DNA from: Candidatus Thorarchaeota archaeon
Lineage (GTDB): Archaea > Asgardarchaeota > Thorarchaeia > Thorarchaeales > Thorarchaeaceae
Reading direction: 5' to 3'
DNA length: 14,717 nt
NCBI GenBank assembly: GCA_048882045.1
Contig: JBHLRZ010000055.1
Span: 1 to 14,717, forward strand
This document shows, one piece after another, positions 1 through 10,361 of this stretch. Below the pieces are notes generated by a model that did no database searches, was not told where the DNA came from, and saw only the letters and a program-made list of their open reading frames with translations. How positions within the stretch are numbered: position 1 is the first letter of the stretch; each line of letters opens with the position of its first letter. The position numbers were made by a program, and so were the translations under genes.

Positions 1-57
1 TATCAACCAAACACTTAAGTGAAACTTAACTATTGTAAAGTCAGGAGATGTTTTAGA

Positions 58-441
58 ATGAACATTCTGGGTACAAAAGCATGGATGTGGATCAATGGAT
101 TAAGTTTGATCATTGTGGGTGCACTTTCACTCATACCCGAAACCTGGGCGATAATAGCCTTTGATGGAGGAACTACTATCAGCATCGTCAAGATCATAGT
201 CGCCTTAATCACTCTCATCGTCGCCTTTAGAGAAACCGACATTGAGATGCTCAATGGTAAGCTGTGGCTCATCACCGTTGGTCTGATCTTACTGTTTATG
301 GGTATGCTTCCATTCTTCCCTGCAGCGATGACTGCTATGGGAGGCGGCGACCTTGGCAACTTTCTCAATACCCTGAAAGTCGTACTTGGTGGACTCACAT
401 TTTTGGTCATCATTATTGATTGGTCCAAGCTTGGAACATGA
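58..441 (+). CDS. Small 4-TM membrane protein made of two tandem helical-hairpin repeats, function unknown
   Basis: Four hydrophobic segments with clear internal duplication (LxxKxW...GL.L...G.L...P ... K.....T twice). ATG at 58 is preferred over GTG at 19 because AGGAG lies at 43-47 and the extra N-terminal residues are not membrane-protein-like. Confidence 0.8.
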   Translation: MNILGTKAWMWINGLSLIIVGALSLIPETWAIIAFDGGTTISIVKIIVALITLIVAFRETDIEMLNGKLWLITVGLILLFMGMLPFFPAAMTAMGGGDLGNFLNTLKVVLGGLTFLVIIIDWSKLGT

Positions 442-529
442 CTGACAGGTAATGGTCAATCCCTGAAATCACCATCACATCATCCTTGGAAACAAAGGAG
501 AATAAACTGCACGCTAGGTGAAAGCCGAT

Positions 530-1264
530 ATGACTGATACTGAACAAGAGAGTACAAGTCTGAATGTCAATCTCAAGAGTATCATAGAGAGGTATCGAGA
601 CCCGTCAGGAAATGTGAACTACTTCTCCCTGATGGCCGACCAAGCAATGGTCGATTATGCTGAATCTCTCGCTGATTTTGACATGAGTACACTGAAGACT
701 CGAAACCAGCGACTTGCCTTCTGGATAAACAGTTACAATGCATTGTCCATCTACGGAGTTGTCAAGAAGCTCAAAAAAGATCCAGACTTCGCATCAAAGG
801 GGAACAAGAGCTGGTTTGGGCGGGTCAGGTTCTTCGCAATCCAGAAGTTCAATGTAGGAGGGGAGATGTACTCGCTGAGAACCATTGAGGACAACATCCG
901 TAAAGACTTTGAAGACCCAAGGGTCCATTTTGCCTTAAACTGCTCATCCTTAGGATGCCCTCTCCTAAAGGATGGACTCTACAGTGCAGAGAACCTTGAT
1001 ACTGAAATTGATGCGGCCACCAGGCTGTATCTAAGCAGCAAGGAAGGGCTCATTTTGGATGAGGAGAAGGAGATTCTCTACATCAGTATGATCTTCAAAT
1101 GGTACAAAAAGGACTTCGAGGCTACTGGAAAGACAGTCATCGAGTACATTAGAAACTACGCCCCTGAACATATTCGCAAGTTTATCGATGAGAAGGGGGA
1201 CGAGGTGAAGCTCAAGAACATTGATTACGACTGGGCTCTCAACATTAGCTCGGAGGAAGATTGA
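530..1264 (+). CDS. DUF547 domain protein (no signal peptide visible)
   Basis: Family motifs LAFWINSYNAL, SLRTIED, DPRVHFALNCSSLGCPLL, SMIFKWYKKDF, YDWALN. ATG at 530 follows SD AGGTGA (516-521); the track start GTG 518 lies inside that SD. Confidence 0.92.
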   Translation: MTDTEQESTSLNVNLKSIIERYRDPSGNVNYFSLMADQAMVDYAESLADFDMSTLKTRNQRLAFWINSYNALSIYGVVKKLKKDPDFASKGNKSWFGRVRFFAIQKFNVGGEMYSLRTIEDNIRKDFEDPRVHFALNCSSLGCPLLKDGLYSAENLDTEIDAATRLYLSSKEGLILDEEKEILYISMIFKWYKKDFEATGKTVIEYIRNYAPEHIRKFIDEKGDEVKLKNIDYDWALNISSEED

Positions 1265-2280
1265 TGGAACGGTTCAGTGGAACCATCTTTGGACTCAAAC
1301 GGGTTGGGAAATATCTCACAGATGGAGACCTTAGAAAAGCCTATGCAGAGTACAAGGAGTCAGAGGAAACAGCCCTTAGACTGATTGTGAATACGATATT
1401 GGCTGAGGGCTGGATCATAACTCTATCAAATTCCAAAACCATCGATGAGATAGCGCGAGAACATGGTTATACTAACATGCGACTTCTTAGTGACATTCTA
1501 AATCTACTCATTGGAGAGAACATAGTAGGATTTGCTGATGGCAAGTATCAGATCCGTGAAGTGAAGACGACTGCTATCCGCCCAGAGGATGTAGGTTCAG
1601 CAATGACCAACTTCTACTATGACTGTTCGAAATATCTCCCTCAGGCACTCAAGGGAAGAAGAGTATCGTTAGAAGAAGTACCGAGAGTCGTACTTGAGAC
1701 CGTATTCAATAGCACTCTGACTGAGAAAGGGCGGGGAGTCTTATTGAGGTCATTTTCACCCAAGAATACGAAGGAGATCGGAGTGGCTGCATTTGCAGAT
1801 GTGGGACTTCCATTCGCCCTAAGACAGATAGATGAGATATTCAATCCAGAGAGAATACATATCTTCCTACACGACCTTCGATGGTTCACACCACTCAAAA
1901 CGATTCTTCAATTACTCTCCCTTGACGAAATCTTCTACAAACTTGTTCCAGACCTACTCGGTAGAAGAGTAATAACAAAAATGGACCTCTTCTATGGAGA
2001 GGAGATTTTCTCATTCTCACACGAAGAAGTTGATGAGAGAGTGAAGACAGTTTCAGACTACCTCAGCCCTGGTGGGCGATTAGTGACGAACGATCCAACG
2101 TTACCCCCTGGCAAGACTGTAAGTACTCCTGCATATGTCCTTATGCAGACGATTGAAGGATATCCACAACCACTTGACAGGGACATTATAAACAACACAT
2201 TCCAGAAGCACTCATTGACAGTACAGACAATCGGAGACAACTGGATCATCGCTGGAAAGGAGGGGACTCGCAGTGGCTAG
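1264..2280 (+). CDS. N-terminal winged-helix + degenerate class I SAM-methyltransferase-like fold protein
   Basis: wHTH-like segment KTIDEIAREHGY...LLSDILNLLIGENIV...DGKYQI. Late MTase elements MDLFYG...F and VSDYLSPGGRLVTND are present, but the motif I position reads EIGVAAFADVG with no DxGxGxG. Start is coupled to the DUF547 stop (TGATG, 1262-1266). Confidence 0.65.
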   Translation: MERFSGTIFGLKRVGKYLTDGDLRKAYAEYKESEETALRLIVNTILAEGWIITLSNSKTIDEIAREHGYTNMRLLSDILNLLIGENIVGFADGKYQIREVKTTAIRPEDVGSAMTNFYYDCSKYLPQALKGRRVSLEEVPRVVLETVFNSTLTEKGRGVLLRSFSPKNTKEIGVAAFADVGLPFALRQIDEIFNPERIHIFLHDLRWFTPLKTILQLLSLDEIFYKLVPDLLGRRVITKMDLFYGEEIFSFSHEEVDERVKTVSDYLSPGGRLVTNDPTLPPGKTVSTPAYVLMQTIEGYPQPLDRDIINNTFQKHSLTVQTIGDNWIIAGKEGTRSG

Positions 2281-2980
2281 GGAAGCAGTAAGAGAACTCT
2301 TTGTCATCCATAAGAGTGGGATTCCAGTCACTCATGTTGGAACAGGGCACCTCCAGATAGATGACGCGTTGTTCGGGGGGTTACTATCAGCAATTGAGAA
2401 TGTGGGAGTCAGTCTTGGTCTTGAGGGGGATGTTGCTCTGGACACCATCCGTTTCAGAGCATACGAACTGGTCTATTCCAGGACTGAGAATAGTCTGATA
2501 GTCTTGCTTACTGATGATGCTTCAGCGAGTTATCTTGGAAAGGCGAAACCCGAACTTGAGGAGATAGGTAGGGAGCTAGAAACTCTCGGCTTTATGCAGG
2601 ACTTTGAAACACGTACTGCAGAAAAGACATCTCAGATTGACGGATTGATCACTCGATTTGCCCGGACAATCTTTGCAGAGCAGGATGATGTGTTCTTCTG
2701 GGATGAGGACCATACGTTCCAGCTCATGCAGCATGAGAATCCGCGATGGAACGGAGCGAACCTGTTCAGCAACTACCTTCTACCGTCACCCCTGATGAAG
2801 ACATTCGACTTACAAATGGACGACATCAAAAGAATCTGTAGTCTGTTGTCGGAGAAGAGGCGTCCTTCAGAAATAATGCAAGATCCTCAATTATCAACAA
2901 AGGATGAGCGAATGATTGAGAACACACTTCGTCTGCTTCATATGTACGGACTTATTCAATGCTACAGGTCAGCAGTTTGA
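2273..2980 (+). CDS. Asgard-type longin/roadblock-like domain fused to a C-terminal winged-helix
   Basis: N-terminus ELFVIHKSGIPV...DDALFGGLLSAIENV...LDTIRFRAYELVY...LIVLLTD matches the longin/roadblock pattern typical of Asgard proteins. C-terminus ICSLLSEKRRPSEI...MIENTLRLLHMYGLIQ is wHTH-like. GTG start overlaps the upstream gene by 8 nt. Confidence 0.72.
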   Translation: MAREAVRELFVIHKSGIPVTHVGTGHLQIDDALFGGLLSAIENVGVSLGLEGDVALDTIRFRAYELVYSRTENSLIVLLTDDASASYLGKAKPELEEIGRELETLGFMQDFETRTAEKTSQIDGLITRFARTIFAEQDDVFFWDEDHTFQLMQHENPRWNGANLFSNYLLPSPLMKTFDLQMDDIKRICSLLSEKRRPSEIMQDPQLSTKDERMIENTLRLLHMYGLIQCYRSAV

Positions 2981-2992
2981 GGATAGAGAACA

Positions 2993-3664
2993 ATGAGTGG
3001 AGTGACAAGGGAAGAGATTCGCCACATCTATAGTTCATCTGCCTTGCACTATCAGATGCTTCTCAAGTTCTATCGTGGTCTTGGAGTCAACCTGGAAAAG
3101 TGGAGGAAGGATGCAATCCGCAGACTGCCTGACCTGAGGAAGCCGAGAATTCTCGATGTGAGTACAGGTACTGGAGCAAACCTACCACTGCTTGTAGAGA
3201 AGTATCCGGACTATAGAGAAATTGTCGGAATAGACTACACTCCAGCCATGCTACAGCAGGCAGAGAGGAGAGTCAGAGTTAATGATTGGAAGAACATTAG
3301 ACTCATCCTTGGTGATGCAAGGGAGATGTCCAAAGTTATAGATGGCAAGTTCGACCTGATCATGTCCACCTATTCTCTCTCCATCATTCCAGATTCACCC
3401 TGTGTTCTCGACGAGATACGTAAACTCGTCATTGACAATGGATACATCTTGCTCTTGGACTGTCAGAAATTCAAGGGAGTTCTCAGAATCTACAATCCTA
3501 TCGCGATTTTTCTCTCCACAAGGCTTGGTGGTAACTCTCAGACCTACTCAGTTCGAGTCAGTGACTTGGCATCGGGGATGTTCAATCTTGTATACCGTCG
3601 GTTGATGTACTCTGGAATGTTCTATGAGGACCTTTACAGACGCAAAAAAAACCTAGTTCTCTGA
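2993..3664 (+). CDS. Class I SAM-dependent methyltransferase (UbiE/PmtA-like)
   Basis: Motif I ILDVSTGTGANL, VGIDYTPAML, LILGDA, FDLIMSTYSLSIIPD. Starts 12 nt after the previous stop, with GAGG upstream. Confidence 0.9.
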   Translation: MSGVTREEIRHIYSSSALHYQMLLKFYRGLGVNLEKWRKDAIRRLPDLRKPRILDVSTGTGANLPLLVEKYPDYREIVGIDYTPAMLQQAERRVRVNDWKNIRLILGDAREMSKVIDGKFDLIMSTYSLSIIPDSPCVLDEIRKLVIDNGYILLLDCQKFKGVLRIYNPIAIFLSTRLGGNSQTYSVRVSDLASGMFNLVYRRLMYSGMFYEDLYRRKKNLVL

Positions 3665-4453
3665 CTCGAAGATGAACATCTCATATCCAATGTTTCCGGA
3701 GGAGATCTGTCCCTCAATCATCTTGATGATTCTAATCGCCTCAGTCATCAAGTTCATTGATTCTTCTGTCCCACCTACGTCTCTGAAGAATTGTGCACGG
3801 CCTCTTGCCTTCCTGGCCATTTCTTCCAGCAGAGCTGAGTGATTAGACGCTGCCAAGAGTCTGTAACCATTCTTTACGAACAGGTCAATGTAGTCATCTG
3901 ATGAGAGAGCATCTGCAATGCAAGCAACTCTGCCCAGAAGACTCCGGAGTTCTTCATCAAGCTCTTGATGATTCTGCACGGTCACATCATTCAGGCCAAA
4001 GATGCCTCCTGGTTTTAGAACTCGAGTTATCTCGGAGACAGCCTGTTCCTTGTCGACGAAGGTACACAGTGAACATTCACTCAGAGCATGGGTGAATGAA
4101 TCGTCTGGGTGAGGGATATTCCCTGCAAGAGCGACAGCAAAGTCAGTTTTATCCGCCACGCGAAGATCGGATGCTATCTCGTAGGCCGCATCTATCATCT
4201 GTTGGTTTGCATCGATTCCAGAAACCTTGCATCCCAGGGTTTTTGCTAGATAGGTGGTTGTCTTTCCATTACCGCATGCGATATCCAGAACTGTGGATTC
4301 AGCATTGACACCCATCTGGTCTGCCATGAGCTTGCTGAGAGCCAATCCTCCTGGATGGAAGATGCCGTCCAGTAGTTTTGAAACAATGGGATGGTTATAG
4401 AAGTCGCCACAGCAGGCCGCAACCTCATTTTCAGATGTTTCATCCAACTCCAT
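3653..4453 (-). CDS. Class I SAM-dependent methyltransferase with ArsM/DVU_1556-like cysteine pattern
   Basis: HPGGLALS, VLDIACGNG, GIDAN, RVLKPGG. Cysteines in ACCGDFY, SECSLC and RVACIADAL. SD AGGAGG lies in the end of the upstream gene. Confidence 0.88.
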   Translation of the reverse strand: MELDETSENEVAACCGDFYNHPIVSKLLDGIFHPGGLALSKLMADQMGVNAESTVLDIACGNGKTTTYLAKTLGCKVSGIDANQQMIDAAYEIASDLRVADKTDFAVALAGNIPHPDDSFTHALSECSLCTFVDKEQAVSEITRVLKPGGIFGLNDVTVQNHQELDEELRSLLGRVACIADALSSDDYIDLFVKNGYRLLAASNHSALLEEMARKARGRAQFFRDVGGTEESMNLMTEAIRIIKMIEGQISSGNIGYEMFIFESEN

Positions 4454-4456
4454 AGG

Positions 4457-5779
4457 TCATTTAGCCTCCTGTCTTCTGAACATGTTATAGTTGCAGAAGG
4501 GAATCATTTTGCCATCAGGTTGGATGACATGAATACAACACTTCTGTGCTCGCTCGAGCTGGTATGTCTGACGGCCCATAAATGAATGCACAGACACTAT
4601 CTTCACAGACTTGCCAAGTACCTCAGGAATGGTCATTCCACATGCTTCACAGAAAGCTTCGAGATTGCTCTCAGTTCCTGGGACAGCTCGTGTCGAGAAT
4701 AGACTCTTGAAGGCTTCATCCATCAGGACAGCCTCCTTGACAAGAGTGCGGTCTCGAGCATAGTCAATGTACTCATCAACGTTCACAATGTCAGTGAGTG
4801 GTGTCACCTCTTTGTCATCCACGAGGACATAGGATATTGATGTGCAGTGAGGATGGGGACAGGGGATTGGGCGAAAGTCACTCTTCTCAAGACTACCGTC
4901 AGTCTGTGTTTCAATCTCATCTAGAACTTTCGAAACGGATATGGTCGAGATGTCAGGAACACCAATCCTGCCTGTGAGAGCTACGGGCTGAAAGTTGATG
5001 CCAAAGACCTTCTTCTGAGAAAGAGCATAGTTGGTCAGAGCCCCGATCTCATGATCGTTGATTCCTGTGATCAGTGTGGGAACAAGGACTGCAGTCATTC
5101 CGAGCTCGTTACAGACCTCTACAGCTCGCTTCTTCTCCTCGACAAGGTCCCTTCCACGAATCTTCTTGGAAACCTCAGGATCAAACGTATCGAACTGGAG
5201 ATAGATGACTGGGTCAGTCTTTGCAAGTTCTTTTGCAAAGTCCTCTTCGAGTAGTCTCAGACCGTTTGTGGATACTGCCACATCTTGGATGCCTAGGTTC
5301 TTTGCATATCTCACTATCTCAAGAATGTCTGGGTGAAGTGTGGGTTCGCCACCACTCAGCTGGAGAAGCTCGGGCTCAGCTTCGTATGAAACATAGGCAT
5401 CTATCATGTTAGATATTCGGTCAAATGGAATGTGACTTCCAGAAGGGGCATCAGCAAAACAGATGTTGCAGTTCAGATTGCATTGGCCTGTTATCTCCAT
5501 TACTCCAACACAGGTGTGTTGTTTGTGTGCAGGACAGATGCCGCAGTCATCCGGACACCCTTTGTCTATCTGAGATGACCAGACCAAGGGAGTTGTTCCT
5601 GGTCTGTTGTATTTGAGAGCCTCCTTCCAGTATTCTGCATCTGATGAAGCAAGGGTTCGAGTAGGACCATGTTCAGGACAAGTCTTGTCAAGATAGACGT
5701 TCTCACCCTCCACTACTTCTGAATTGTCAATCAAACGGCCGCATACAGGGCATAGACTCTTCATTCTATGTTCTCTCAA
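4457..5779 (-). CDS. Radical SAM protein, Tes/GDGT-MAS (MJ0619)/TrsS-like family paralogue
   Basis: N-terminal SLCPVC...KTCPEHG, auxiliary GCPDDCGICPAHKQHTC, radical SAM CNLNCNICF, QLSGGEPTLHP, YLQFD, FQP, PCPHPHC, and C-terminal ERAQKCCIHV...DGKMIPFCNYN. Start is TTG 5779 or ATG 5764. Confidence 0.92.
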   Translation of the reverse strand: MREHRMKSLCPVCGRLIDNSEVVEGENVYLDKTCPEHGPTRTLASSDAEYWKEALKYNRPGTTPLVWSSQIDKGCPDDCGICPAHKQHTCVGVMEITGQCNLNCNICFADAPSGSHIPFDRISNMIDAYVSYEAEPELLQLSGGEPTLHPDILEIVRYAKNLGIQDVAVSTNGLRLLEEDFAKELAKTDPVIYLQFDTFDPEVSKKIRGRDLVEEKKRAVEVCNELGMTAVLVPTLITGINDHEIGALTNYALSQKKVFGINFQPVALTGRIGVPDISTISVSKVLDEIETQTDGSLEKSDFRPIPCPHPHCTSISYVLVDDKEVTPLTDIVNVDEYIDYARDRTLVKEAVLMDEAFKSLFSTRAVPGTESNLEAFCEACGMTIPEVLGKSVKIVSVHSFMGRQTYQLERAQKCCIHVIQPDGKMIPFCNYNMFRRQEAK

Positions 5780-7337: not shown

Positions 7338-8798
7338 TCAAATGGTTTCGCTCACATTCTGTCTTTTCCGTATGACAATGATTGCTACAATGATTGGAAC
7401 TACTAAAGATGAAATTCCCAAGGTTACAATGAATGGAGTCCACTCCGCAGGCACTAAACCTGACGTTGTTGAAGGTTCGGAGGGAGAGTGCTCAGTGATT
7501 GCGATGTCAACCTCATCTGAAACTCCCTCTCCAAAATCGATGTTTCCGGCAGAAGCTTCAGAAAAAAGGAGACTCGTAATTACATATAAAGTGTCAATTG
7601 AATTTCCAGTGACATTCTCAAGAATCGGGCTTCCAAGGGCATTCTTCTGAACAAACCATCCATCTGAGTCATGATAGACAATAGAAACTCCAGTATATCC
7701 CATATCTGGCTGGCTTATGGCAACTGTGAAGTTGTCAGGGGGATTTGTGATTTTGATGATTTCAGCACCGTAGTAACGAATTGAGAGGCTCTCAATTTCA
7801 ACGGGTATAGTATTCCTGACTGTCAATTCCTGAAACTGAACGTCCATGTTCGCGAATCCGTAGTTATTGTCCGCAAAGCCCAATTCATCAATTGTTATTG
7901 CTGTGACCCAGTCAAGATAGAGCTCATTGAAAGATATGTTGTGTCCTGCATCCAGGAGAGCAGCCTCAATTCCTAATGCTCCATCCTCTTCCTGTTGTAC
8001 TAGTTCAGTAAGGAATTGAACGCCAAATCTCTCCGCCAAATAGAATGCGAAGAGGTAAGACCCGCCATAGTCCTTCTGAGCCACGTCAAAATAGATCAGT
8101 GAGTCATCAGGAGTCTGAAGAAAATAATCGGTGCGATGCGAAACATTGCCTCGGTAGGAGAGATATCCAACGTAATAGGTTGCATACTCAGCCATTCCTT
8201 CAAGAATGAAATGGACCTCATCGAACTCATAGTTGAACCAGATAAGATGACAGAACTCATGGGCTATTGTGTCCAGAATCAAGTAGTTATCATAGTAAAT
8301 GTAGACCATCTCACAGAGGTTTGAATAGGTGGATACGATCTCGTTGTACTGAGAGTAATAACTCATCAGATTGTCTGATATCAGAATTATAATTCTGGGG
8401 TCTCCATCGACATCGCCAATACGCCCATCTGGATTTCCAGTCAGTTCAGTGACCTTGGGATAGATGACATCATCGAACTCGTTTCTGTAGGATTCACATC
8501 TACTTGTTGCCTCTTCTTGACCCAGTAGTGAAATCAAGCTGTCTTGAAAGTAGATGAGACAGTGCTCTCCAATTGCTAACAATGTAGCATCTATCTCATA
8601 ATGAGTAGCAGTATCAAAATCGTTTGCCCAGAATGACCTTGTATCTCCCACATTCTGAGTCAGGCTGTATTTGGTTGGAGGAGAAGTGGGCGATGCCTGT
8701 GGAGGTTCCAAGACAATCTGACTATTTAGTTGAAGGAAAAGGAGTCCGAATACTAAAAGACCAATGTACAGGATTCTCGTGACAGCTCTTCTGTACAT
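7338..8798 (-). CDS. Secreted, membrane-anchored zinc metallopeptidase (HEXXH, M30/M6-like)
   Basis: N-terminal signal/TM, DGDPRIIIL, SNLCEMVYI, TIAHEFCHLI, downstream EGMAEYA, DYGGSYLF, S/T/P-rich linker, C-terminal TM followed by RKR. Confidence 0.85.
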   Translation of the reverse strand: MYRRAVTRILYIGLLVFGLLFLQLNSQIVLEPPQASPTSPPTKYSLTQNVGDTRSFWANDFDTATHYEIDATLLAIGEHCLIYFQDSLISLLGQEEATSRCESYRNEFDDVIYPKVTELTGNPDGRIGDVDGDPRIIILISDNLMSYYSQYNEIVSTYSNLCEMVYIYYDNYLILDTIAHEFCHLIWFNYEFDEVHFILEGMAEYATYYVGYLSYRGNVSHRTDYFLQTPDDSLIYFDVAQKDYGGSYLFAFYLAERFGVQFLTELVQQEEDGALGIEAALLDAGHNISFNELYLDWVTAITIDELGFADNNYGFANMDVQFQELTVRNTIPVEIESLSIRYYGAEIIKITNPPDNFTVAISQPDMGYTGVSIVYHDSDGWFVQKNALGSPILENVTGNSIDTLYVITSLLFSEASAGNIDFGEGVSDEVDIAITEHSPSEPSTTSGLVPAEWTPFIVTLGISSLVVPIIVAIIVIRKRQNVSETI

Positions 8799-8922
8799 CA
8801 AAATCTCAACGCCTCTATTAGTTGAGGAGCATTCCTAGAATGAATATAGGTCTTGATTTCTACGCTATCGAGAAACATTGGATTTTTCAATAGGGAGTCG
8901 CAGTTGGACGTGGGTGTGAATA

Positions 8923-9376: not shown

Positions 9377-9494
9377 GTGAAGGTTGATTAGTGACCATCT
9401 GCAGATACAACGTCAACACCCAAGTCAAACAGAATAATACCAGAACATGGCTTTCATAAGCTCGTTTGCAGCTGCGTTTCTTGGTGAATTCATT

Positions 9495-10361
9495 TTGTAC
9501 ATTAAGGGAATGGACAAGCTACGAGAGAAGCTTCCTGCTTACCCTGGAAAAAGACTTGCAATACTTCCACTCAGAGCATTCCTGACGGGAATACTGGCAT
9601 ATGCGTTCCTGATCATTCTGGTCATCACTCCACGCTTCTTTCCTGGCAACGATCTTCTAACGGCACTAGAACCTGTGCTTCCACTTCTTGGAAGTGTCAT
9701 AGTTGCCACGTGTGCTCTCTGGTTGATTTGGGGACTCTGGAACAAACGAATTGAGATGAAGGAGCAGCATGGAGATTTGGCATATCAGAAGATGATAAAC
9801 CGAGGGCTGACTGGAGTCTTTCTAATTCCTTCACTGGTGTTTCTCGAATTCACGTTAAGTCGATCATTCCCACCAGGTTCACCTCTCAATCCGATAACGA
9901 CTCAGTGGTCGACATCAATTCTATATCTCTTGGGAGATCCTTTCGGAATCGAACTCTGGATAAGGATGATACTCTCATTCATTTTTCTTATACTAGGCAT
10001 GCTAACAGTTCGCAGCGCACTAATGACCTTTGGACTAGACTATATGGGTGTAGTCTATCTCTTCTTCCCTGAGGAATCGGAAGTGCAGCAGCATGAGATC
10101 TATTCTGTCATACGTCATCCAACATACCTAGGTGGAGTGTTACTCGGTACAGCTGGGCTATTCTTCAGGTTCTCAGTCTACTCCATCTTCTTGTTCCTGT
10201 TGGTCTATATGGTCTTCAGACTGCAAATCTGGAAGGAGGAGAAAGAGCTTGTTGAACGGTTTGGTGAGGGCTACGTTGAATACAGAAAGAATGTCCCTGC
10301 CCTTCTGGTCAGACCAAGTAAGATTGGAGCATATTTCAGGTTCCTACGACCGAATGAATAA
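9495..10361 (+). CDS. Isoprenylcysteine carboxyl methyltransferase / PEMT family integral membrane methyltransferase
   Basis: IYSVIRHPTYLG and EEKELVERFGEGYVEYRKNVP signature, with multiple TMs. TTG 9495 is preferred because GGTGA sits at 9483-9487; the track start is 9447. Confidence 0.88.
   Translation: MYIKGMDKLREKLPAYPGKRLAILPLRAFLTGILAYAFLIILVITPRFFPGNDLLTALEPVLPLLGSVIVATCALWLIWGLWNKRIEMKEQHGDLAYQKMINRGLTGVFLIPSLVFLEFTLSRSFPPGSPLNPITTQWSTSILYLLGDPFGIELWIRMILSFIFLILGMLTVRSALMTFGLDYMGVVYLFFPEESEVQQHEIYSVIRHPTYLGGVLLGTAGLFFRFSVYSIFLFLLVYMVFRLQIWKEEKELVERFGEGYVEYRKNVPALLVRPSKIGAYFRFLRPNE

Follow-up and report, generated by a model that had tools for sequence, protein, structure and literature searches.

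A methyltransferase-fold protein with a degraded cofactor motif is translationally coupled to a longin protein in a conserved radical SAM gene cluster of Thorarchaeota

The GATOR1 subunits NPRL2 and NPRL3 form a heterodimer of paralogous longin proteins, of which a catalytic arginine acts on a Rag GTPase, and SAMTOR (BMT2), a protein with the class I methyltransferase fold, senses S-adenosylmethionine (SAM) through an intact binding site. Longin and roadblock proteins of Asgard archaea are classed as "eukaryotic signature" proteins; to our knowledge, almost no such Asgard protein has a known partner or task. According to the available text of one study (PMC10933270), Asgard longin and roadblock genes are seldom found in informative operons. 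Here, we analyzed a stretch of 14,717 nucleotides (nt), the window, from a Candidatus Thorarchaeota archaeon (assembly GCA_048882045.1, contig JBHLRZ010000055.1). The window is the entire 14.7-kb source contig, and the genome is 3.6 Mb in size and 93% complete. Two overlapping genes of the window encode a methyltransferase-fold protein and a longin protein, which we designate A and B, respectively (Table 1). We propose, with a probability of roughly 0.4, that A, which would have lost methyl transfer, binds B and that the two serve as non-catalytic subunits (regulator, adaptor or scaffold) of the pathway encoded by a cluster of seven genes.

In NPRL2 and NPRL3, as described in the available text of Levine et al. 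(2013, PMC3747258), a longin domain at the N terminus precedes C-terminal parts of the winged-helix type. B appears to have the same order, with the longin domain first and a winged-helix-like part second. Comparison of B and its cluster with these proteins revealed that (i) after its longin domain, B could accommodate a single short domain, not two or more; (ii) the cluster has no gene for a paralogous longin partner, no DEPDC5-like protein and no Rag-type GTPase; and (iii) a G-x-P motif stands in B where a GP motif would be expected. Protein A resembles SAMTOR in its class I methyltransferase fold and in its non-catalytic use, which is proposed for A, beside a longin-protein complex. By contrast, motif I of A is degraded, and no homology between A and SAMTOR was shown. 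Other known proteins close to A are the polyketide C-methyltransferases (CurJ, AprA MT2, DszA and citrinin CMeT) and the pseudo-methyltransferase domain of fatty acid synthase. Unlike these synthase domains, A is a free-standing archaeal protein, and its gene has no polyketide or fatty acid synthase nearby.

The reading frames of A and B (open reading frames (ORFs) 1261/1264–2280 and 2273–2980, forward strand) overlap by 8 nt. The ATG at 1264 was taken as the start of A because the database copy of A has 338 amino acids (aa). The genes for a DUF547 protein, A, B and a UbiE-like methyltransferase lie head to tail on the forward strand with spacings of -1, -8 and +12 nt. In all 13 loci compared, the A-to-B spacing lies between -8 and +4 nt, and a purine-rich Shine-Dalgarno-like motif stands inside A at the same place before the start of B. 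In a census of 301 Asgard genomes (77 in the family that holds the pair and 224 outside it), 15 genomes carried A (13 full-length copies, 1 split over two contigs and 1 fragment); because the related genomes are kin, such counts do not represent independent events. B was found in the same 15 genomes and adjoined A in each; a fragment of B also stood at a contig end in a sixteenth genome. The pair is limited to one family (15/77 genomes there, 0/224 in the others), in which its distribution is patchy, with 6 of the 25 genomes of the window's genus and four further genera holding it. Eight A-B pairs with neighbouring locus tags are present in public records. A and B are thus a translationally coupled and strictly co-occurring pair. 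An earlier note on this DNA, written from the sequence alone, had described the overlapping genes, their coordinates and the C-terminal peptide of B correctly, and the conservation of the pair in other Asgard genomes, which it had named as a check, was borne out within the one family.

The window copy of A matched no Pfam and no NCBIfam family. Its AlphaFold2 model, which was built from an alignment of 27 sequences, had a predicted local distance difference test (pLDDT) score of 84.3 and a predicted template modelling score of 0.82. The model comprises an N-terminal segment (residues 1–19), a long helix (residues 21–48), a winged helix and a Rossmann-type class I methyltransferase fold. Residues 1–19 are conserved yet poorly modelled, F10 and G16–D21 being invariant or nearly so. 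The last 100 residues (pLDDT ~90) fold into two short strands, followed by five helices and a last strand; they are acidic to neutral and therefore do not suggest DNA binding. Foldseek matched the model to at least 500 methyltransferase chains at E ≤ 0.001. In the VIA-align search, in which the best 50 matches were listed, polyketide C-methyltransferases ranked first among the matches listed: CurJ scored 23.5 (308 residues, 4.2 Å), AprA MT2 23.0, the ladderane-cluster enzyme 8hd2 22.2, DszA 22.1, citrinin CMeT 21.1 and a human fatty acid synthase chain 15.8. SAMTOR was absent among the best 50 matches of both searches, lists that are crowded by hundreds of methyltransferases. A sequence search of the Protein Data Bank (PDB) with the A profile returned only CurJ (E 0.03), over the N-terminal part, and 4 of the 27 members of the A family weakly matched an O-methyltransferase dimerisation model.

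Protein A differs from its active Asgard homologues in several respects: (i) motif I reads ADVGLP in A and DVGCGNG in the active homologues, with a deletion of two residues, so that A lacks the D/E-x-G-x-G-x-G form of active class I methyltransferases; (ii) a proline takes the place of the second glycine; and (iii) the segment after strand 4 reads D-L-F-Y-G-E-E in A and D-x-V-Y-x-S-Q-V-L-H-W in the active homologues. The replacements in motif I and in the segment after strand 4 are fixed across the A family. Twenty-six of the 27 members match no Pfam methyltransferase model even at E ≤ 10, the remaining one matching Methyltransf_23 (E 8.7e-5), whereas the active homologues match Methyltransf_11 at 1e-12 to 1e-19. 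An acidic pocket formed by D180, E247, E248 and D278 is kept in all 27 members. The model, the structure matches and the motif alignment agree that A has the methyltransferase fold with a degraded glycine-rich motif, as the earlier note had stated, and the same motif comparison suggests that A is catalytically dead.

Protein B consists of a longin domain (residues ~5–135) and a helical, winged-helix-like C-terminal domain (residues ~136–235). DSSP assignment of the B model gave strands at residues 7–13, 18–23, 58–60, 65–70 and 74–80 and helices at residues 31–47, 85–105 and 116–129, that is, the strand-strand-helix-strand-strand-strand-helix-helix order of longin domains, and most of residues 5–135 can be aligned with longin domains of known structure. 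B itself matched no Pfam and no NCBIfam family, and none of the 30 members of the B family matches a longin-type Pfam model at E ≤ 10; paralogues linked to B by hhalign (described below) reach Fuz_longin_1 with 26.9 bits (cut-off 26.1). Among the best 50 matches of a structure search against 48,161 representative chains, a GATOR1 chain was the only one spanning both domains of B. This match is loose, with a root-mean-square deviation of 11.1 Å (range 11–15 Å) and scores under those of longin-only matches. Foldseek also aligned B with GATOR1 and SEA-complex chains over 266–304 alignment columns. The C-terminal domain (residues 136–235) appears winged-helix-like from its predicted secondary structure, the loose GATOR1 match and a weak profile alignment to the paralogues. 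A search of the ESM Atlas with this region gave a best score of 0.83, below the level that counts as more than a lead.

At the sequence level, a PDB search with the B profile returned nothing meaningful, the Pfam NPR2 and NPR3 models matched neither B nor its family, and PF06218 had no match in the genome at E ≤ 10. A library-wide search with the B profile gave 12 matches at E ≤ 0.001 among 1.84 billion representatives; five of them are B family members or fragments and the rest generic Asgard longin domains. By the Pfam content of those scanned, no eukaryotic protein is apparent among these matches. G16 and P18 of B are present in 30 of 30 members, in a G-x-P motif that precedes strand 2, and R70 in 27 of 30, in the turn between strands 4 and 5. 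As far as the available text of a 2025 paper (PMC12290439) describes them, longins of the GTPase-activating type carry a GP motif and an arginine finger. The G16-x-P18 motif and R70 of B sit at these two places; the motif is not identical, and we regard the correspondence only as a lead.

On another contig (C37) of the window's genome, two adjacent genes encode longin plus winged-helix proteins of 348 and 425 aa (Table 1), whose sizes across the family are ~300 and ~425 aa. This longin pair matches TrmB with 30.5 bits (above the cut-off), MarR and HTH_47, and one homologue weakly matches HTH_NPRL3 (E 0.073); a PDB sequence search with a 431-aa paralogue found nothing. A ParA/MinD-like P-loop ATPase gene follows the pair and overlaps the gene for the 425-aa protein by 11 nt. 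The 425-aa protein is encoded by 59 of the 77 family genomes (21 of the 23 of high quality) and occurs in all 16 genera, and its ~300-aa partner adjoins it in 24 of 25 loci. The hhalign comparison linked B to the ~300-aa family (Prob 95.2, E 2.7e-8) and to the 425-aa family (Prob 89.9, E 1.7e-6), the latter alignment running weakly into the C-terminal domain of B, and a G-x-P-x-x-H hairpin signature is common to B and the pair. By these profile alignments, B is a divergent, rarer, shorter and cluster-bound paralogue of a lineage-wide longin plus winged-helix pair. The two share homologous longin domains and the order of longin then winged helix; by contrast, the lineage-wide proteins have at least two winged helices, are encoded as two adjacent paralogues, are followed by an ATPase rather than by SAM enzymes and occur in 59 rather than 15 of the 77 family genomes. 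The longin pair is probably the "NPRL2-like" family reported in most Thor genomes by Liu et al. (bioRxiv 10.1101/2020.10.19.343400), an equation suggested by the wording of the available text of that report. We also observed a stand-alone longin paralogue of 140 aa on contig C15 (Table 1), which is 30% identical to residues 6–85 of B, shares with it a D-E-A-L-F-G-G-F-L-S-A motif and is encoded directly 3' of the gene for a protein of 88 aa whose N-terminal region carries a CxxC pair.

The architecture of B had been likened to that of NPRL2/NPRL3 in the earlier note. The longin fold was borne out by the structure matches, the winged helix only in part, and the NPRL2/3-like layout gains support from the paralogy with the longin plus winged-helix pair and from the two-domain GATOR1 match; a kinship at the level of sequence failed the Pfam searches given above. 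The winged-helix-like parts of both proteins and the TrmB, MarR and HTH_47 matches of the B paralogues would also suit transcription regulators of the cluster, whose methyltransferase-like and longin domains sense a ligand in the manner of SahR. We consider this very unlikely, because the net charge of the winged-helix parts is low (medians of -2 for A residues 51–100 and -1 for B residues 178–235, neutral to acidic), the N-terminal part is an enzyme lid or dimer interface in the structural relatives of A, and the same winged helix is found in active homologues within GTPase operons (described below).

The A-B pair is embedded in a cluster of seven genes, in which the genes for a small membrane protein, the DUF547 protein, A, B and the UbiE-like methyltransferase lie on one strand and those for a second class I methyltransferase and a radical SAM enzyme converge on them (Table 1). 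The two methyltransferase genes converge, and their 3' ends share 12 nt (3653–3664). We found 11 Thorarchaeota loci through the radical SAM gene, some of which are in genomes already counted above and are not independent of them; each cluster gene is present wherever the contig reaches. In a set of 11 short loci, DUF547 adjoins A in 10, the eleventh ending inside A; the UbiE-like methyltransferase follows B in all 11; and a homologue of the small membrane protein lies 5' of DUF547 in 8. The small membrane protein is also present in 5 of 5 extended loci. These five extended loci, from four further genera, contain all seven genes including the second methyltransferase, with the membrane protein on the far side in one of them, and the genes outside the seven are not conserved. 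The placement of the pair among SAM-using enzymes, which the earlier note had recognized, thus holds for two methyltransferases and a radical SAM enzyme. Likewise, no small GTPase was found in the window, as the note had said, nor in any of the five extended loci.

The radical SAM enzyme of the cluster matched the TrsS model with 350 bits (cut-off 490) and the Tes model with 322.5 bits (cut-off 450), and PDB entry 7tol (GDGT-MAS) with an E value of 5.4e-76. By these profile matches it is a paralogue of the tetraether lipid synthase (Tes/GDGT-MAS) and of TrsS; a true Tes, with 623.5 bits, is encoded on another contig (C14) of the same genome. Relatives of the enzyme with at least 61% identity were found only in Thorarchaeota records, always together with the cluster. 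Because the radical SAM enzyme is a Tes/GDGT-MAS paralogue, the cluster probably acts on a lipid-like substrate.

The A profile also matches the winged-helix region (positions 41–136) of ORFs of ~340–370 aa in 23 further Asgard genomes. Judged by its alignments, A belongs to an Asgard family of winged-helix methyltransferases, with homology over the full length including the N-terminal winged helix. We inspected the neighbourhoods of these homologues at 25 loci. Thirteen loci (L017, L090, L092–L097, L099 (two copies), L100–L102 and L104), with 14 operon copies in three families, encode a protein of 200–232 aa, a protein of 304–324 aa that belongs to no family, and a winged-helix methyltransferase. 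Motif I of the methyltransferase is intact in 14 of 14 copies, and the small protein has the G1 and G4 motifs of GTPases in 13 of 14, with a Pfam Ras match in 4 of the 5 scanned. This GTPase operon resembles the A-B cluster in having a methyltransferase homologous to A with the same N-terminal winged helix; it differs in its intact motif I, in the presence of a GTPase gene and in a partner that is not detectably related to B (hhalign Prob < 2 between B and the ~310-aa protein). The Atlas neighbours of the ~310-aa protein were coatomer zeta, Longin and Gtr1_RagA, all of them sub-threshold and obtained with a model of pLDDT 0.49, and they are a lead only. The window's genome has no such operon of GTPase, 310-aa protein and methyltransferase, no 310-aa protein and no other member of A's methyltransferase family.

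At 2 of the 25 loci, which belong to one genus of another family and are not independent, genes for a Ras GTPase, GrpE, a longin protein, an A homologue and a metallophosphoesterase lie on one strand (Table 1), which makes a second pairing of a longin with a methyltransferase-like protein, in another gene order. The Ras GTPase was identified with an E value of 2e-62, and the longin protein (252–279 aa) was recognized by the 425-aa family profile (E 2e-9 to 4e-9). Beside the longin protein, the A homologue has 338 aa and combines a variant motif I, DLFGYTG, with an A-like F-G-x-E-x-F segment; hhalign aligned A with the homologue of locus L109 over 275 columns (Prob 96.4, E 1.1e-9). Three longin profiles match 15 of the 7,076 stop-to-stop ORFs in the window's genome, a rarity that would make a chance adjacency to a longin gene unlikely. 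A longin-like gene lies two genes away from the A homologue at 1 further locus. At 2 loci of a further Asgard family, a KaiC-like ATPase (484–495 aa) directly precedes an A homologue with intact motif I; one of the two weakly matches Sybindin, a longin-type family (E 0.03). At the other 7 of the 25 loci no GTPase, longin or KaiC-like neighbour was seen.

These GTPase and longin neighbourhoods keep alive, as an analogy, the idea that A is a SAMTOR-like sensor of SAM or S-adenosylhomocysteine (SAH), which binds B in a ligand-dependent manner, B then signalling the methyl-donor status to a GTPase encoded elsewhere. Such SAM sensing, which the earlier note had put forward, seems improbable to us, since the glycine-rich loop of A is degraded and shortened, its nearest structures are polyketide C-methyltransferases with SAMTOR not among the matches listed, the cluster loci lack a GTPase, and the GATOR1 match of B is loose and below longin-only matches, with no NPR2 Pfam signal and G-x-P instead of GP. 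What the note had observed was confirmed and its interpretation in part, the link to SAMTOR and GATOR1 standing only as an analogy.

If A and B are non-catalytic subunits of the pathway, as we propose, A would be the descendant of a winged-helix methyltransferase with a decayed SAM loop, probably no longer methylating, and its invariant acidic pocket might still accommodate a ligand or a head group resembling a substrate. A and B, produced together from overlapping frames, would most likely bind each other. Longin platforms in other systems bind partner helices or nucleoside triphosphatases (NTPases); B may supply such a platform, and the N-terminal peptide or the long helix of A is a possible contact on it. 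Together, A and B would serve the cluster (the Tes-like radical SAM enzyme, the two active methyltransferases, the DUF547 protein and the small membrane protein) in modifying a lipid-like substrate.

Several points weigh against this proposal. D180 and G182 of motif I are retained in A, which may point to an unusual SAM site. Residue 205, near the end of strand 2, is Asp in 21 and Asn in 6 of the 27 members; it lies two residues past the predicted strand (residues 198–203), and the column aligned with the ribose-binding acidic residue is L203/H204. The strong conservation of the pocket suits an enzyme equally with a sensor, and the assignment of A as dead comes from sequence. In addition, the cluster has no NTPase and no second longin gene; no fused A-B protein or longer fused B was found, which is weak evidence; and the lipid-like substrate rests only on the kinship with GDGT-MAS and on the structural kinship of A with acyl-carrier enzymes. 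In a quick tree, a long stem (2.93 changes per column) leads to the A family, separately from both other groups. Such a stem would fit relaxed or changed constraint, in line with the proposal, but the placement is flagged for the risk of long-branch artefact.

Alternatively, A may have stayed an active methyltransferase, the third of the pathway, whose cofactor loop is unusual, and B would then be a partner for its assembly or targeting. In favour of this reading, the class I fold is complete and modelled with high confidence, many pocket residues are retained in addition to D180, G182 and D/N205, and the nearest homologues outside the family show intermediate motifs (DLFGYTG and DLFGGTG) beside intact ones. 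The two-residue deletion in the loop, the proline in place of the second glycine, the failure of 26 of the 27 members to match the Pfam models that recognize the active homologues, and the very long stem branch speak against activity, and we regard an active A as unlikely.

Beyond the cluster, the window contains an ORF of 487 aa with no Pfam family, the neighbours of which are a small membrane protein gene and a UPF0047 gene. It also contains a gene for an ICMT/PEMT-type membrane methyltransferase (Table 1). Homologues of the latter lie a few kb from the cluster in three related loci (L025–L027), and none was seen in more distant ones.

Table 1. Positions of the genes and motifs of the window and of related loci (locus names precede positions outside the window).
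Feature	Position	Strand	Remarks
Small hydrophobic (membrane) protein	19..441	+	140 aa from GTG 19; no Pfam or NCBIfam match; first gene of the cluster
DUF547 protein	518..1264	+	PF04784, E 1.4e-24; 1 nt shared between its stop codon and the start codon of A
Gene A	1264..2280	+	338 aa; ATG start
GGAGG ribosome-binding-like motif	2259..2263	+	in the 3'-terminal part of A, separated by 9 nt from the GTG of B
Gene B	2273..2980	+	235 aa; GTG start
UbiE/COQ5-like class I methyltransferase	2993..3664	+	Methyltransf_31, 1.2e-18; Ubie_methyltran, 2.4e-14; under every NCBIfam cut-off
Second class I methyltransferase	3653..4453	-	Methyltransf_11, 1e-19; DVU_1556-family model, 126.9 bits (cut-off 155)
Radical SAM enzyme with N-terminal zinc ribbon	4457..5779	-	Radical_SAM, 3.1e-24; Zn_ribbon_HMPTM, 3e-14
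487-aa ORF	7338-8801	-	
ICMT/PEMT-type membrane methyltransferase	9447-10361	+	
Longin pair	L047:753-3898 (with the ATPase gene)	-	
140-aa stand-alone longin paralogue	L002:1351-2021 (with the 88-aa gene)	-	
Ras GTPase, GrpE, longin protein, A homologue and metallophosphoesterase	L107:3107-7212; L109:2166-6250		
KaiC-like ATPase	L018:2044-3498; L103:2922-4409		

An NPRL2-like Asgard longin protein and a pseudo-methyltransferase are of kinds already known; what is new is the fixed coupling of A and B, the fixed cluster of SAM enzymes around them and the repeated occurrence of GTPase genes next to members of the methyltransferase family. Our full-text search of the literature returned nothing that joins SAMTOR and Asgard archaea, and by title nothing was found on a longin–methyltransferase pairing in Thorarchaeota. 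In this cluster, a longin plus winged-helix protein of Asgard archaea has a fixed, coupled partner and a fixed enzymatic neighbourhood. A homologues recur next to Ras-like GTPases, with a longin protein as neighbour in one family, which hints at a wider link between the methyltransferase fold and GTPase switches in the archaea most closely related to eukaryotes. It would be a long shot that Asgard methyltransferase-fold proteins are standing partners of GTPases and longin proteins, in most lineages as active enzymes encoded in GTPase operons, A being a ligand-holding pseudoenzyme that, together with B, gates a lipid-modifying radical SAM pathway. If this were true, the pair would parallel, in a prokaryote, the reading of metabolite status by SAMTOR and GATOR1 and might be its forerunner; if the pair is a mere accessory of a lipid pathway, it would still mark an uncharacterised cluster around a Tes paralogue.

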